A stretch of DNA of 64,000 bases from Planctomycetota bacterium (GCA_043775355.1 JAYVSL010000025.1:224-64223), one strand, 5' to 3'. Numbered from the stretch's first letter, positions 5,425 through 55,757 are shown. Notes: generated from the sequence alone by a model not told the origin. Numbers and translations: made by a program.

Positions 5425-5991
5425 ATGGCAACGAGCCGACTTGATTTGGATGCGACTTCCAGCGCGCTGCTGGTCATCGATGTCCAAGAGCGCTTTCTTA
5501 AAGTCGTCCCCGCCATCGCCGCTGATCAGGAGGTTGGTCGCAACTGCCGAATCCTTCTGCAAGCAGCGGGATTATTGCACATTCCCCGATTGATAAGCGA
5601 ACAATATCCCGCCGGTCTTGGCCCCACGTTAGCGCACATCAGCGAAGCAGCGCCAGAGGTCCCTCGCTTAGCCAAGATGCACTTTAGTTGCGCCGAAGAT
5701 CCAGCGATCGCGATCGCGATCGACCAACTTGGCCGTCAGCAATTGGTCATCGCCGGCATCGAAGCCCATGTCTGCATCCTGACCACCGCAGCTGATTTGA
5801 TCTCACGTGGTTACCAAGTCGTCATCGCCGGTGACGCCATCGCGAGCCGCGAACCGAGCCACGTGACGATGGCCATCGCCGCGCTGCGCGACTTGGGAGC
5901 CCTGGTTTTACCGACGGAAACCATCGTCATGCGTTGGCAGCGCGAAGCCGGCGTCGGATGTTTCAAGGCACTCGCTCAGCTGATTCGTTAA
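5425..5991 (+). CDS. isochorismatase-family cysteine hydrolase
   Basis: 188 aa. ALLVIDVQERF near the N-terminus and the IAGIEAHVCI segment are typical of isochorismatase/YcaC-like hydrolases. Confidence 0.8.
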   Translation: MATSRLDLDATSSALLVIDVQERFLKVVPAIAADQEVGRNCRILLQAAGLLHIPRLISEQYPAGLGPTLAHISEAAPEVPRLAKMHFSCAEDPAIAIAIDQLGRQQLVIAGIEAHVCILTTAADLISRGYQVVIAGDAIASREPSHVTMAIAALRDLGALVLPTETIVMRWQREAGVGCFKALAQLIR

Positions 5992-6140
5992 ATGTCTGAT
6001 GTCCGATGTCCGATGTCCGATGTCGTTTTATGCGACGTTGGGCTTAGAGCAGGGATCACTGAACTTAACGGCCCCGTGATGTCGGCGACGAAAATTCTCC
6101 GACATCAGACATCGGACATCGGACATCGGACATTAGACAT
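5992..6140. repeat. inverted arrays of the heptamer ATGTCCG flanking a 74-bp spacer (element copy 1)
   Basis: 5992-6025 reads ATGTCTG ATGTCCG ATGTCCG ATGTCCG ATGTCG. 6100-6140 is the reverse-complement array (CGACATC AGACATC GGACATC GGACATC GGACAT TAGACAT). It fills the whole spacer between two convergent stop codons. Confidence 0.9.
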
Positions 6141-6862
6141 TAGAAGGACGTGAGAAGGGCCATTTCATCCGCCGTGATTTCGCGCATGGTGCCGAGCGCC
6201 AAATCAGCGGGCAATTCCAGGCCGCCAATTTTGTCGCGGTGCAGCTGGATGACCTCGCCGCCTAATTCGGCAATCATGCGCCGGACTTGGTGATAACGAC
6301 CTTCGCTCAAAAAGAGCGTCGCCAAACCCAACCCTTGATGATCATTGCCTTGAAGCTCAAGCCGAGCGGGCAAGGTGGGATTCGGATCGTCACCTAAGGT
6401 CATACCTTTGGCGCAACGTGTCACTGCGTGGTAGGACAATTTACCGCTGTACACAATGCGATAGCGCTTTTCCAAATGACGACGTGGATTCGTCAACGTA
6501 TGAATTAGACCACCATCCGAAGTTATCACTAAAAGCCCGCTGGTATCACGATCGAGTCGACCGGCGCTCTCCAACGACAGATGTTGAAAACTTGCGGGGA
6601 TCAATTCCTCAACCAACGGCGCTTCCTTGGGATCATGACTGCAGGCAAATCCAAGCGGTTTATGCAGTAATAACGTTGCGCCCGCCACGCCGACCACGAC
6701 TTCACGGCGATCGACGGCGATGACTCGGCCATCGATATGTAAACCGTGATTGCGACACACCACGCCATCGACCGACACCCGGCCACGGCGAACTAAATCG
6801 CGTGATTGACTACGGCTACCGAAACCGCGGTGACTGAGAAAGGCGTCAAGTCGAGTGCTCAT
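6140..6862 (-). CDS. rsuA: rRNA pseudouridine synthase, RsuA/RluB family (S4 domain plus catalytic domain)
   Basis: 240 aa. N-terminal S4-like RLDAFLSHRGFGSRSQSRDLVRRGRVSVDG and the catalytic GRLDRDTSGLLV motif. Size fits RsuA. Confidence 0.8.
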   Translation of the reverse strand: MSTRLDAFLSHRGFGSRSQSRDLVRRGRVSVDGVVCRNHGLHIDGRVIAVDRREVVVGVAGATLLLHKPLGFACSHDPKEAPLVEELIPASFQHLSLESAGRLDRDTSGLLVITSDGGLIHTLTNPRRHLEKRYRIVYSGKLSYHAVTRCAKGMTLGDDPNPTLPARLELQGNDHQGLGLATLFLSEGRYHQVRRMIAELGGEVIQLHRDKIGGLELPADLALGTMREITADEMALLTSF

Positions 6863-20069: not shown

Positions 20070-21479
20070 ATGCTGGCTACCCCCCTCACGATTGCGCCGC
20101 TGCCCCGTCCAACGGGTGAAATTGTTTGGCACGTTCCTGGTTCGAAGAGCATCACCAATCGTGCTTACGTTCTGGCGGCGCTATCGCAGGACACGGTATT
20201 ACACAATGTTTTGGAAAGCGATGACACCCAGCGGATGCGCGAATGTCTGGATGGCTTTGGTGTCACCGTCGAATCGCTGAGCGATAACCGCGTGCGTATT
20301 TTAGGCGGGCGTCAGCGGCTGAAAGTTCCGACGCGCTCGTTGTTCGTCGGCAATAGCGGCACGACGGTGCGATTCCTTGCCGGGTTGGCGGCACTGATTC
20401 CTGGGGCAACAACTTTCACCGGCGATCAGCACATGGCTAAGCGCCCAATCGCGGATTTGGTTGATGGGCTGCGACAATTGGGGCTGACGGTTGAGTGCCC
20501 AACGGGTTGTCCGCCATTGACGATTCATGGTGGTCCGATCACGAGCGCTCGCGTGACCATGAATGGTGAAAAGTCGAGTCAGTATTTCACCGCGCTGTTG
20601 TTGTCAGCGGGAATGTTTGATGTCGATTTGGATATTACCGTTGAGGGAACCTTGGTCAGTCGTCCGTACATCGACATGACCATCGCGATGGTACAAACAT
20701 TCGGTGGGAAAATCGACGCCACGACCCATCACTTTCATATTCATGGACGGCGTACCTATGGCATCGGCAGAGATGAAACCACGGTAAACACCACGCCTTC
20801 ATTCGCCATTGAACCGGATGCCTCGTCAGCCAGTTATCCGTTCGCCTTGGCTGCGGCCTTGGGTTTCGCGGTTACGGTCCATGGGCTCGATCAACATTCG
20901 CTGCAAGGCGACATCGGCTTTGTCGAAGTGCTCAAACGAATGGGCGCGACGATCACTCAAGGCCGACTCGCCAACAGTGCGGGGCAAGTCGGAGTTCCTT
21001 TTACCCGCGTCGCAAGCGACAAGCCTCCGCGTGGTGTCGACGTCGATATGCACCATATCAGCGATACGGTGATGACCCTGGCCGCCATCGCGCCGCTGTG
21101 CGAAGGACCAACCACCATCCGTAACGTCGCCAATATTCGCATCAAAGAAACCGATCGCCTGATTGCGACGGTCAACGAATTACGCCGCGTTGGTCAGCAC
21201 GTGGAACACGGCGACGACTGGCTACGCATCACCCCAAGACCGCTGAAACCAGCAACGATTGAGTGCTATAGCGATCACCGCATGGCGATGAGCTTTGCCA
21301 TTTTGGCCGCCGCCGCGCGCGATCATCATTGGGACTCCACCGTGCCCGCATCCCAACGCACCATCCGCATCGCCGACCCCGCATGCACCGCGAAAACGTA
21401 CCCAGGATTCTGGGACGATCTCTTCTTGTTGTCCGATGTCCGATGTCCGATGTCCGATGTCTTTCATACGGACGTTTGA
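20070..21479 (+). CDS. aroA: 3-phosphoshikimate 1-carboxyvinyltransferase (EPSP synthase)
   Basis: VPGSKSITNRAYVLAAL, GNSGTTVRFL and KETDRL motifs. I start at ATG 20070 (MLATPLTIAPL), because the 78 upstream codons overlap glnD antisense. The last ~17 codons are encoded by the heptamer repeat element. Confidence 0.9.
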   Translation: MLATPLTIAPLPRPTGEIVWHVPGSKSITNRAYVLAALSQDTVLHNVLESDDTQRMRECLDGFGVTVESLSDNRVRILGGRQRLKVPTRSLFVGNSGTTVRFLAGLAALIPGATTFTGDQHMAKRPIADLVDGLRQLGLTVECPTGCPPLTIHGGPITSARVTMNGEKSSQYFTALLLSAGMFDVDLDITVEGTLVSRPYIDMTIAMVQTFGGKIDATTHHFHIHGRRTYGIGRDETTVNTTPSFAIEPDASSASYPFALAAALGFAVTVHGLDQHSLQGDIGFVEVLKRMGATITQGRLANSAGQVGVPFTRVASDKPPRGVDVDMHHISDTVMTLAAIAPLCEGPTTIRNVANIRIKETDRLIATVNELRRVGQHVEHGDDWLRITPRPLKPATIECYSDHRMAMSFAILAAAARDHHWDSTVPASQRTIRIADPACTAKTYPGFWDDLFLLSDVRCPMSDVFHTDV

Positions 21480-21596
21480 CCAGATCATTCACATTGGTTC
21501 CTCGAAAAAAATCAGACCGATTCGAAAATGACCCAATGACCCCAACCAAATCCCGCAGCACAAGACCTCGGACATCGGACATCGGACATCGGACAT
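21430..21596. repeat. inverted arrays of the heptamer ATGTCCG flanking a 107-bp spacer (element copy 2)
   Basis: 21430-21461 reads TGTCCG (ATGTCCG)x3 ATGTC. 21569-21596 reads (CGGACAT)x4, perfectly complementary. The spacer start TTTCATACGGACGTTTG resembles copy 1 (TTTTATGCGACGTTGGG). Confidence 0.9.
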
Positions 21597-22230
21597 GCTC
21601 AGAATAATCGCTGGTGAATTCAGGGGCAGAAAATTACTTGCTCCCCCAGGGCTAGAAACTCGTCCCTTACCGGATCGCATCAAGCAATCGCTTTTTGATT
21701 GGCTTGGGCAGTCGTGCGAGGGCTGGAAAGTGGCGGATGTCTGCGCCGGATCGGGCAGCTTTGGTTGCGAGGCGCTCAGTCGTGGAGCGGCCGATGTTCA
21801 CCTGATCGAATCAGGTCGCCATGCGATTTCGATTCTGCAAGCCAACCATCGTGCGCTGGGTGCGCCGACGGGACTGCATCTGCATACACGGCAATTCCAA
21901 CAGGCACTGCCGACGTTGTCTGGTTTGGATCTGATTTTCGCGGATCCGCCATTTCCTTGGTTTGTCGATCAACCGGAAACGCTCACTGAATTGCTGCGCC
22001 TTGCGATGGCGGCGATGAGCAGCAAAGGGCGCTTGGTCATCCGTGGTGAACGTGGTCACGATCTGCCGTCGTTGCCGCCCGGACTACGCGAATCTGAACG
22101 CCGTTTCTATGGCCGCAGTTGGGTGGTGGTGCTTCATCGCGTCCCGCATGCGCCGCTGCCTCGGCAAGAAATCGGCAGCGCTTGGGTTCCGACGTCGAAC
22201 GTGAGCAAAGACCTTCCACAGTCCGAATGA
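21595..22230 (+). CDS. rsmD: 16S rRNA (guanine966-N2)-methyltransferase
   Basis: 211 aa. MLRIIAGEFRGRKLLAPPGLETRP and DLIFADPPF are RsmD hallmarks. The ATG lies in the last repeat unit of the upstream element. Confidence 0.85.
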   Translation: MLRIIAGEFRGRKLLAPPGLETRPLPDRIKQSLFDWLGQSCEGWKVADVCAGSGSFGCEALSRGAADVHLIESGRHAISILQANHRALGAPTGLHLHTRQFQQALPTLSGLDLIFADPPFPWFVDQPETLTELLRLAMAAMSSKGRLVIRGERGHDLPSLPPGLRESERRFYGRSWVVVLHRVPHAPLPRQEIGSAWVPTSNVSKDLPQSE

Positions 22231-54410: not shown

Positions 54411-55757
54411 TCACCAGAACGCTCCTGGGCGCTGAGTCACCAGATCGCGCGCCGTGGCGTGCTCAGGATTCTGATCGATATAACGCTGAAAGTGTTCGCG
54501 ATACTTGGCGATGAAACTTTGCACCGGCCACGCCGCACCAGGCGCGAAAGCGCAGATGGTGGTCCATTCATAACTATCGGCGAGGTCTTTGATCAGGTCG
54601 ATGTCGCCATCTCGTCCTTTACCATCAATCACTTTATCGAGTACACGATCGACATAGCCAGTGCCTTCACGGCACGGCGTGCACTGACCGCAAGATTCAT
54701 GAGCATAGAATCGCGCGATGGTTTGCAAAAATTTCGGTACATCGGTGGTGGTATTGAATGGCGTGATCGCGCCAGAACCAAGCATCGACTTCAAAGCCGC
54801 CAAGGATTCATAATCGAGCGTCGCTTTGCGAGTTTCGTCGGCCGTCAAGACTGGCGCCGAAGAACCGCCAGGAATACAGCCGAGCAATTCACCCTTCAAA
54901 CCGCCGCACAATTCGAAGAACTCCGAGTACGACATGCCGAGCGGCACTTCATAGACGCCGGGTTTCACAATATCGCCACTGATCGAAAACAATTTCGAGC
55001 CGGGGCTCTTATCGGTACCAAATTGACGGTACCCCTTTGCGCCATGCTTCAAAATGTATGGCACCGCCATAATCGTTTCGACGTTATTGACCACCGTCGG
55101 AGAAGCGAACGCGCCGCTTACTGCGGGGAATGGTGGCTTCAAACGTGGTTGGCCTTTGAAGCCTTCCAGCGAATTGATCAAGCCAGTTTCTTCACCACAG
55201 ATGTACGCACCAGCGCCGCGATGGACGTAGATGTCGAGCGAATATTGCGAGCCGCCGATGTTTTCACCGAGCAGGCCAGCAGCGTACGCTTCTTTGATCG
55301 CATCGTTCAAACGAGTGATTTGCGGCAGCATTTCGCCGCGCACATAAATATATGCCGTGCGTACGCCCAATGCGTAGCCGGTAATAATCATCCCTTCGAG
55401 CAGCAAGTGCGGATCGCGTTCCATGCACATGCGATCTTTGAAGGTGCCAGGCTCGCCTTCGTCGGCGTTAATAACCAAATACACAGGCTTACCCGTGCCA
55501 CGTGGCACGAAAGACCACTTCATGCCGGTGGGAAATCCCGCACCGCCACGACCGCGCAGGCCGGAATCTTTGACCAACTCAATCAGCTCAAGCTGGCTCT
55601 TATCAAACAGCATCGGCCCAACGGTGTCGTAGGCGCCGTGTTGTTTCGCGACCGCCAAGGTGTGGCCATTATCGACCTGGAACAACCGGCTGAGAATGCG
55701 CGGCAGTTCTTTGCCTTTCCAATGCGTCGGCTGAGGAAATCCGTGGAGCGTGGTCAT
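54411..55757 (-). CDS. nuoF: NADH-quinone oxidoreductase subunit F
   Basis: 448 aa. GLRGRGGAGFPTGMKW (FMN/NADH site) and ESCGQCTPCREG (N3 cluster) motifs. Confidence 0.95.
   Translation of the reverse strand: MTTLHGFPQPTHWKGKELPRILSRLFQVDNGHTLAVAKQHGAYDTVGPMLFDKSQLELIELVKDSGLRGRGGAGFPTGMKWSFVPRGTGKPVYLVINADEGEPGTFKDRMCMERDPHLLLEGMIITGYALGVRTAYIYVRGEMLPQITRLNDAIKEAYAAGLLGENIGGSQYSLDIYVHRGAGAYICGEETGLINSLEGFKGQPRLKPPFPAVSGAFASPTVVNNVETIMAVPYILKHGAKGYRQFGTDKSPGSKLFSISGDIVKPGVYEVPLGMSYSEFFELCGGLKGELLGCIPGGSSAPVLTADETRKATLDYESLAALKSMLGSGAITPFNTTTDVPKFLQTIARFYAHESCGQCTPCREGTGYVDRVLDKVIDGKGRDGDIDLIKDLADSYEWTTICAFAPGAAWPVQSFIAKYREHFQRYIDQNPEHATARDLVTQRPGAFW

Follow-up and report, generated by a model that had tools for sequence, protein, structure and literature searches.

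Inverted pairs of tandem heptamer arrays have been described most fully in Xanthomonas campestris and X. axonopodis, which carry 70-75 convergent (GGGAATC)n pairs per genome. About 90% of these pairs are intergenic, close to the upstream open reading frame (ORF) and mostly between co-directional genes, and in related species they are found at the same junctions, highly variable in length and sequence; they are confined to one genus, and their function is unknown (Rehm et al. 2015, PMC4692102). The present work concerns an element of the same kind that lies between aroA and rsmD in a 64,000-nucleotide stretch of DNA (the window), which is contig C25 of a 4.08-Mb metagenome-assembled genome (MAG) of an uncultured member of the Planctomycetota (282 contigs, 89% complete). 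Here too, the arms are tandem 7-nt arrays, (ATGTCCG)3-4 forming the left one and (CGGACAT)4 the right one. The arrays are on opposite strands and keep one convergent order, occur in many copies (66:1 for the two orders; 82 loci), are mostly intergenic and near the upstream ORF, recur at the same junctions in relatives, and are restricted to one genus. The element differs from the Xanthomonas pairs in that ATGTCCG lacks a G run, which excludes the G-quadruplex idea put forward for Xanthomonas, in that the genus harbors several subfamilies with a GTCCG core, one of them an 8-mer, and in that the junction copy reaches into a coding end and shares bases with a start codon. The G-rich unit marks the Xanthomonas/Nostoc sequence family (GGGAATC/GGGGAYT) and not the architecture; the Xanthomonas inverted heptamer pairs are the closest described kind, and the junction element belongs to that known, unexplained kind. 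What sets it apart is the well-resolved history of this copy, including a secondary deletion fusing the repeat to two gene ends.

Besides these pairs, several other bacterial repeats share some of the same traits. Long simple sequence repeats with units of 5-11 nt, as the work of Mrazek et al. 2007 is summarised in PMC4679880 and PMC4692102, are most commonly heptamers, intergenic, patchily distributed and probably grown by polymerase slippage, and the tandem heptanucleotide elements of Geobacter metallireducens fall into the same loose class (PMC2700814). The Geobacter elements and the short tandemly repeated repetitive (STRR) heptamers of cyanobacteria are likewise heptameric, but mostly form single direct arrays, whereas the element described here is an inverted pair of fixed polarity around a unique spacer. 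In marine Beggiatoaceae, arrays of the heptamer TAACTGA come to within a nucleotide of start codons and in some cases run over the end of the preceding ORF (MacGregor 2015, PMC4679880); the contact with a start codon is alike, but these arrays are direct and keep one orientation relative to the downstream gene instead of forming inverted pairs. Repetitive extragenic palindromes (REPs), together with bacterial interspersed mosaic elements (BIMEs) and REP doublets forming hairpins (REPINs), are mobilized by REP-associated tyrosine transposases (RAYTs); a REP is a single imperfect palindrome, 20-40 bp long and tagged with GTAG or CGTC, and is associated with a RAYT gene flanked by the repeat (Di Nocera et al. 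2013, PMC3733652). Like REPs, the copies described here are dispersed, vertically persistent and species-specific extragenic palindromes at gene ends and in operons that can form RNA hairpins; unlike REPs, their arms are tandem arrays without a tag, and their spacers reach up to hundreds of nucleotides.

The Element and the Two Genes It Joins

In the following, G000 denotes the source genome, G009 its sister, and G001-G010 together with VAR61 the relatives within the genus. The features at the junction are:

20070 to 21479, plus strand: aroA (5-enolpyruvylshikimate-3-phosphate (EPSP) synthase, 469 amino acids), an ORF matching Pfam PF00275 (E = 3.5e-106) over residues 17-451, to the end of the profile
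21423 to 21479, plus strand: AroA tail FLLSDVRCPMSDVFHTDV plus TGA, repeat-encoded, replacing an ancestral xxxYPxxxKPW and stop in the alignment with eight relatives
21430 to 21461, no strand assigned: left arm, TGTCCG(ATGTCCG)3ATGTC
21462 to 21568, no strand assigned: spacer of 107 nt, of which the first ~20 nt are the subfamily motif ATGTC-N-RCGACGTT
21569 to 21596, no strand assigned: right arm, (CGGACAT)4, the final two bases being the A and T of the rsmD start codon
21595 to 22230, plus strand: rsmD (16S rRNA m2G966 methyltransferase family, Cons_hypoth95, 211 amino acids), matching Pfam PF03602 (E = 1.8e-37)

The arrangement reported in the initial annotation, comprising the element itself, an aroA frame that runs through the left arm, and an rsmD ATG that overlaps the last right-arm unit, was recovered in full from the sequence. 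The positions and the sequence of the arms stood as well, but not their perfect complementarity over 28 bp: the longest perfect pairing is 27 bp, and an inverted-repeat search returned arms at 21430-21463 and 21562-21595 (34 nt, 97% complementary, 98 nt between them), with a second register at 21436-21461 and 21571-21596 (26 nt, 100% complementary). With at most 1 mismatch allowed, the window contains 12 matches to the 14-mer ATGTCCGATGTCCG, where shuffles give an expectation of 0.04, and all 12 fall in the junction element and in an element at 5992-6133. Moreover, the same spacer (with 1 single-nucleotide polymorphism), a four-unit right arm and the ATG overlap were found in an independent European Nucleotide Archive assembly (contig ERZ27315231 k141_2082381); a search for junction variants among metagenome contigs returned a sole match, which was an unrelated chance match.

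The aroA frame traverses the left arm and meets a stop codon 18 nt inside the spacer, the ORF ending at 21479, and the encoded protein ends in ...YPGFWDDLFLLSDVRCPMSDVFHTDV. The Pfam EPSP_synthase profile stops exactly at L451 of ...WDDL, which leaves the 18-residue tail outside the domain. Orthologous AroA proteins, within the genus and beyond, end in ...WDDLxxxYPxxxxPW followed by the stop, and this ancestral tail is widespread outside the genus, for example in Myxococcota and Acidobacteriota. The orthologue alignment thereby bore out the proposal that the last AroA residues are lineage-specific and repeat-encoded, which applies to the last 18. The tail of G009, FLLSAVRCPMSF and stop, is unlike that of G000 in length and sequence, the two proteins ending in ...WDDLFLLSDVRCPMSDVFHTDV (G000) and ...WDDLFLLSAVRCPMSF (G009), each followed by the stop. 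An ATGTCCG array is stop-free in every frame, all three frames reading the same seven codons, so that any ORF entering an arm reads through; by computation, one left-arm unit more would give a tail of 63 residues and one fewer a tail of 33. An identical AroA product is not on record in other assemblies. Since aroA is single-copy, with tblastn of AroA against the whole genome matching this locus only, the tailed AroA is presumably the working enzyme. Given its position beyond the EPSP-synthase domain and the difference between G000 and G009, the tail is most likely, as judged from these comparisons, tolerated junk on that enzyme.

The rsmD ATG at 21595-21597, whose A and T close the fourth CGGACAT unit, is the first start codon past an in-frame stop. 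The nine RsmD orthologues share the same start codon and all begin (M)LRII.G, and position 1 of the Pfam Cons_hypoth95 profile pairs with RsmD residue 2; on the evidence of these alignments, the ATG is therefore ancestral. The suggestion that it had been formed by the repeat is contradicted by these data, the start being in the same place in species with an empty junction.

History of the Junction

Orthologous aroA-rsmD junctions were read in nine genomes, and the comparison separated species without an element from species in which it stands beside an intact AroA. The junction is empty in G001, G004, G005 and G010, where AroA ends in ...YPGFWDDLxxxYPxxxxPW and stop and rsmD starts 7-16 nt downstream. 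In G002, the normal AroA tail and stop are followed by 7 nt, a (CTGTCCG)n left arm, a (CGGACAT)n right arm, GGTCCC and the ATG; G008 combines a normal AroA tail with an element of GAGTCCG and CGGACCY units, 14 nt and then the ATG. A normal tail is also present in VAR61, together with a solo 8-mer array, and in G003, together with an 8-mer element. Only in G000 and G009, whose RsmD proteins are 95% identical, has the AroA tail been lost, the final 10-12 codons and the stop being gone, and in both genomes the right arm touches the rsmD ATG. The arm-to-ATG gap of 6-14 nt seen in G002, G008 and VAR61 has been lost in G000. As G002, G008 and VAR61 have arrays at this site with an intact tail and stop, insertion or expansion of the element, to which the remodelling of aroA had been attributed, does not by itself account for it.

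Several observations connect the junction of G000 and G009 with that of the G002, G008 and VAR61 clade. The RsmD tree unites G000 and G009 with G002 and G008 (support 98/98), and the C-terminal 90 alignment columns of the G000 AroA are 93% identical to the G002/G008/VAR61 clade, including its 13-residue insert. In VAR61, the segment missing from G000 and G009 has GATCT on either side (gacGATCTggcc...tggtGATCTtcgtgc). Spacer conservation between G000 and G009 extends over the 3' 35 nt and leaves out the 5' part.

Taken together, the junction element is one copy of a genus-restricted palindromic repeat family, and the data make it likely that a later deletion fused it to both gene ends. The element has probably resided in the small aroA-rsmD gap since the common ancestor of G000, G009, G002, G008 and VAR61, and the arrays in that clade would since have been altered in unit and length through slippage. 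In the lineage of G000 and G009, a deletion of ~30-45 nt would have taken the last 10-12 aroA codons, the stop and the bases before the left arm. This deletion may have run between GATCT direct repeats like those persisting in VAR61, and the flanking sequences suggest such a deletion between short direct repeats. The aroA ORF would then have read through the arm to the first spacer stop, and on the rsmD side loss of the 6-14 nt that had kept the right arm apart from the ancestral ATG would have led to the overlap of arm and start codon.

The aroA gene of G000 and G009 is moreover mosaic-looking. The AroA tree places it with G001/G005 (100/99), and RsmD, GlnD and TetR of G000 and G009 group with G002/G008/VAR61 at ~80% identity; the approximately unbiased (AU) test rejects the RsmD-type clade for AroA (p = 0.0012, the group having been named after the trees were seen). 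AroA alignment columns ~60-300 are nearer to G001/G005 (for example, 72% vs 47%), and columns 360-450 are 93% identical to G002/G008/VAR61, a pattern that suggests an internal recombination tract. No compositional sign of transfer was found in aroA, whose GC content at third codon positions is at the 79th percentile. The conflict between the AroA and RsmD trees led the element to be considered as a gene-replacement breakpoint, which was rejected, as a sliding-window comparison places the foreign-like segment in columns ~60-300 and the 3' end is native; the mosaic is therefore unrelated to the tail.

A Genus-Restricted Repeat Family

The source genome contains 539 + 507 exact units and 159 arrays of at least two units, which merge into ~82 loci, 51 of them complete. 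Polarity is fixed on either strand, with 66 pairs of the form (ATGTCCG)n...(CGGACAT)n vs 1 reversed. The spacers measure 24-287 nt and nearly all start with ATGTC and end with GACAT; they are otherwise unique, as just 5 weak matches were found among 52 spacers compared with each other, and the junction spacer has no homologue at any other locus of the genome. The motif ATGTC-N6-9-RCGACGTT, which was defined post hoc, is present in 10 of the 52 spacers vs 1.1 in shuffles, both window copies included, their arm-proximal stretches TTTCATACGGACGTTTG and TTTTATGCGACGTTGGG both belonging to it. Common descent of the two window elements, which had been argued from GATCAYT and CGAAAAT in both spacers, holds in the sense that the junction element is a member of one repeat family of common descent, but not for those shared words: local alignment of the two spacers scored 14 vs 13.0 +/- 2.1 for shuffles. 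Shared descent of the spacers over their full length was rejected on this basis, and only the short arm-proximal motif remains.

The elements occupy almost the entire intergenic gap, the first exact unit lying a median of 8 nt from the stop codon of the upstream gene. Among 44 classified complete loci, 35 lie between co-directional, 7 between divergent and 2 between convergent genes, which is near the genome background. At least 14 of 39 gene ends have a slightly degenerate unit flush with or overlapping the stop (TAA followed by ATGTC, TAATGTC, TGATGTC), as at 5989-5998 and 6134-6142 of the window. Deep overlap with a coding end is found only at the junction copy (44 nt), the next largest overlap being 15 nt. 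The window holds one further copy:

5992 to 6147, no strand assigned: other window copy, which fills a convergent-gene gap from stop codon to stop codon

Within the genus, 6 of the 11 species have ATGTCCG arrays, and sampling of 30 other genera revealed none. The relaxed pattern GTCCGNNGTCCGNNGTCCG revealed more subfamilies (GG/GA, CT, GT and others) and is almost confined to the genus, and the reversed control pattern is rare. G003 and G010, both without ATGTCCG, each have ~600 matches to the 8-mer pattern GTCCGGAA, again in inverted arrangement. As far as these sequences indicate, what the subfamilies share is a GTCCG core, joined to a variable linker of 2-3 nt (AT, GR, CT, or GAA as the 8-mer).

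Membership in described mobile families was examined for REPs and for miniature transposable elements with inverted repeats (MITEs). Neither assignment holds. REP/RAYT membership was rejected on tag, architecture and transposase link, and for want of a correlation across the genus: no array-flanked Y1 transposase was found in G000, whose four partial Y1_Tnp matches have no array within 3 kb, and full-length Y1_Tnp genes are present in G003 and G004, both of which are without ATGTCCG arrays. The arrays do form terminal inverted repeats as in MITE or foldback elements, and MITE membership was rejected on shared internal sequence (5 weak matches among 52 spacers, the motif in 10 of 52). Target-site duplication was seen neither at the junction copy nor at the G000 flanks, GAGCG on both sides being found in the single G003/G010 pair. 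Viral contigs gave no match to the element, so that phage carriage was rejected.

Other repeats were recorded in the same genome. Tandem Repeats Finder listed 981 tandem arrays in the 4.08 Mb of G000, with 160 of period 7, 166 of period 12 and many of periods 7-15; 114 of the 160 period-7 arrays have the ATGTCCG unit. A second inverted-pair family is built of the 8-mer AACGGAGG and a third of AGCTCGT-type heptamers. At C120:6041-6581, a 478-nt spacer has within it a long palindrome that belongs to another repeat type (gccgaagatagcccagggcaacgccctggg...), a nested insertion.

Turnover Between Sister Species

Most G009 elements that were examined map to the orthologous G000 locus, and two loci show larger changes, other spacers being 85-93% conserved. 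At G000 C26:12173-12303, compared with G009 C64 (L128 1547-1696), the left arms are identical and the right arm is (CGGACAT)4 vs (CGGACCT)4, a unit swap across the whole arm that leaves one mismatch per repeat. At G000 C22:4669-4810, compared with G009 C133 (L132 398-528), the spacer is reverse-complemented between collinear flanking genes, which implies recombination between the arms. As a further observation, arrays at G000 C58:7042-8022 bracket a complete gene for a 270-aa membrane protein with a Peptidase_C39 domain; in G009 this gene is deleted to its last ~20 nt, and an ordinary short-spacer element remains.

In the second pair of sisters, G003 and G010, the aroA-rsmD gap itself differs. 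The 8-mer (GTCCGGAA) element is present in G003 (C8 ~55230-55370; L149 5232-5368) and absent from G010 (C540 1241-1245), in a context where AroA is 96.5% identical and the junction flanks are 93-96% identical; superfamily members have thus been gained or lost recently. GAGCG lies on both sides of the G003 element, as possibly does a longer imperfect duplication (CCATGGTGAGCG / CCATCGGCGCGGAGCG). Moreover, an element shared by G003 (C8 19534-19651; L147 14535-14652) and G010 (C22 2930-3110; L187) has unrelated spacers of different lengths between flanks that are >90% identical. Two other differences involve different repeats. A 211-nt insertion at G010 C22 948-1172 (L187), absent from G003, was set aside as a different inverted-repeat element with its own termini (GGATAGAACAGAAGGA...TCCTGTTCTATCC), and at G003 C8 ~66440-66560 (L149 16443-16560) lies another high-copy repeat of that clade, ~100 nt long and 82-100% identical to sequence in dozens of contigs of G010.

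Predicted RNA Fold and Expression Signals

The junction is predicted to form a long hairpin (-90.2 kcal/mol, z = -6.2), and the spacer by itself has no fold (z = +0.21). When the left arm was held single-stranded in the model, as by a translating ribosome, the mean unpaired probability near the ATG rose from 0.26 to 0.58. Rfam 15 covariance models gave no match up to E = 1 in 21300-21750 on both strands. A promoter-like or terminator-like site was not found within the element, which fits co-transcription of aroA and rsmD; an intrinsic terminator in particular was rejected, as no such site is present and the right arm is followed by GCTCAGAATAATC and not by a T run.

In an aroA-rsmD transcript, the arms would pair as a ~30 bp stem enclosing the rsmD ATG, and ribosomes completing aroA would cross the whole left arm and melt the stem. 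As aroA ribosomes would in this way open the stem, coupling of rsmD translation to aroA translation is the likeliest functional consequence according to the folding model, and gating of rsmD translation by the hairpin is possible on the same grounds.

Discussion

The junction element is a family member that a secondary deletion has probably joined to aroA and rsmD, and a number of points count against this account and the coupling that may follow from it. The microhomology model depends on a single relative, VAR61, and orthology of the junction element across the clade is inferred from position and weak spacer similarity. Sister species may have wholly different spacers at one site, so that re-insertion there is possible. 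The unit number in a short-read MAG may be mis-assembled, which would alter the tail. With respect to coupling, the sense fold is the stabler one in only 13 of 35 elements of co-directional pairs (p = 0.15), and the junction copy folds better on the antisense strand; the equality of sense and antisense folds gives no sign of selection on the transcript. In G002, G008 and VAR61 the ATG lies outside the stem, and at other G000 loci right arms end 2-5 nt from a start codon with an upstream ORF that does not enter the left arm; coupling is therefore no family rule.

Other explanations would assign the element a function or a different origin. There is an outside chance that the GTCCG-core arrays are cis-elements of a genus-specific factor, forming a targeted mobile or self-renewing family that homes to gene ends, with the junction copy coupling aroA and rsmD. 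This idea draws on five features, all of them hard to obtain by slippage alone: the conserved 5-nt core with its free 2-3 nt linker, the fixed polarity, the first unit flush with the upstream stop, the unrelated spacers at one site in sisters with 93-96% identical flanks, and the fact that two separate clades have each gained or lost an element in this one aroA-rsmD gap. If it were true, ribosomes ending aroA would melt a stem that hides the rsmD start, and the family would be an undescribed element. It is unlikely, too, that the hairpin is a selected riboregulator that gates or tunes rsmD or sets the stabilities of the two cistrons (for example, via RNase III), with the aroA read-through selected to open the gate. 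The start codon within a ~30 bp stem, the aroA ends of G000 and G009 in or just past the left arm despite differing arrays, and the location of most family members inside pairs of co-directional genes, directly against the stop of the first gene, speak for such a device. The absence of sense/antisense asymmetry, an unconserved spacer without structure of its own, the ability of one orthologous arm to switch its unit at the cost of a mismatch in every repeat, and the relatives that have the same gene pair without the element or with the ATG outside the stem argue against it, and the comparison comprises two species only.

A recent MITE or foldback transposition into the 3' end of aroA, in which the insertion itself destroyed the tail and created the start overlap, as the initial annotation had read the locus, appears improbable. 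Fixed polarity, array-type terminal inverted repeats, and the presence or absence of an element with GAGCG flanks at the junction of G003 and G010 are consistent with mobility; yet G002, G008 and VAR61, which resemble G000 both on the rsmD side and at the 3' end of aroA, have arrays with the tail intact, the junction copy is without target duplication, the spacers are unique and not copies of a master, and viral contigs are without a match. Nor is a transposase linked to the elements, the Y1_Tnp matches being partial, far from the arrays, and not tracking them across the genus. Action at the DNA level is more doubtful still, to the point of being very improbable: the arrays would offer phased GTCCG sites to a genus-specific protein of the nucleoid, replication or recombination, or form cruciforms, and the effects on aroA and rsmD would be incidental. 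It would accord with a GTCCG core that is kept while the linker of 2-3 nt varies among subfamilies and species, with the strand symmetry of the family, with a fixed polarity that hairpin stability alone does not demand, and with a spacer inverted between species, implying recombination between arms. No candidate protein was found, however, and the flush position at stop codons is without an obvious rationale at the DNA level.

In some bacterial groups hairpins of heptamer arrays are common, and no origin or function has so far gained acceptance for them. The family described here provides handles on that problem in its GTCCG core, its polarity, its contact with stop codons, the inversion of a spacer, and a present/absent pair with direct repeats. 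For annotation, the last 18 residues of this AroA are repeat-derived, and their length is set by a slippage-prone unit count. Finally, a single gene pair offers a natural series, from an empty junction, via an element beside intact genes, to an element fused to both ends, which shows that heptamer repeats can capture the C-terminus of a protein and the start codon of its neighbor with neither gene being killed.

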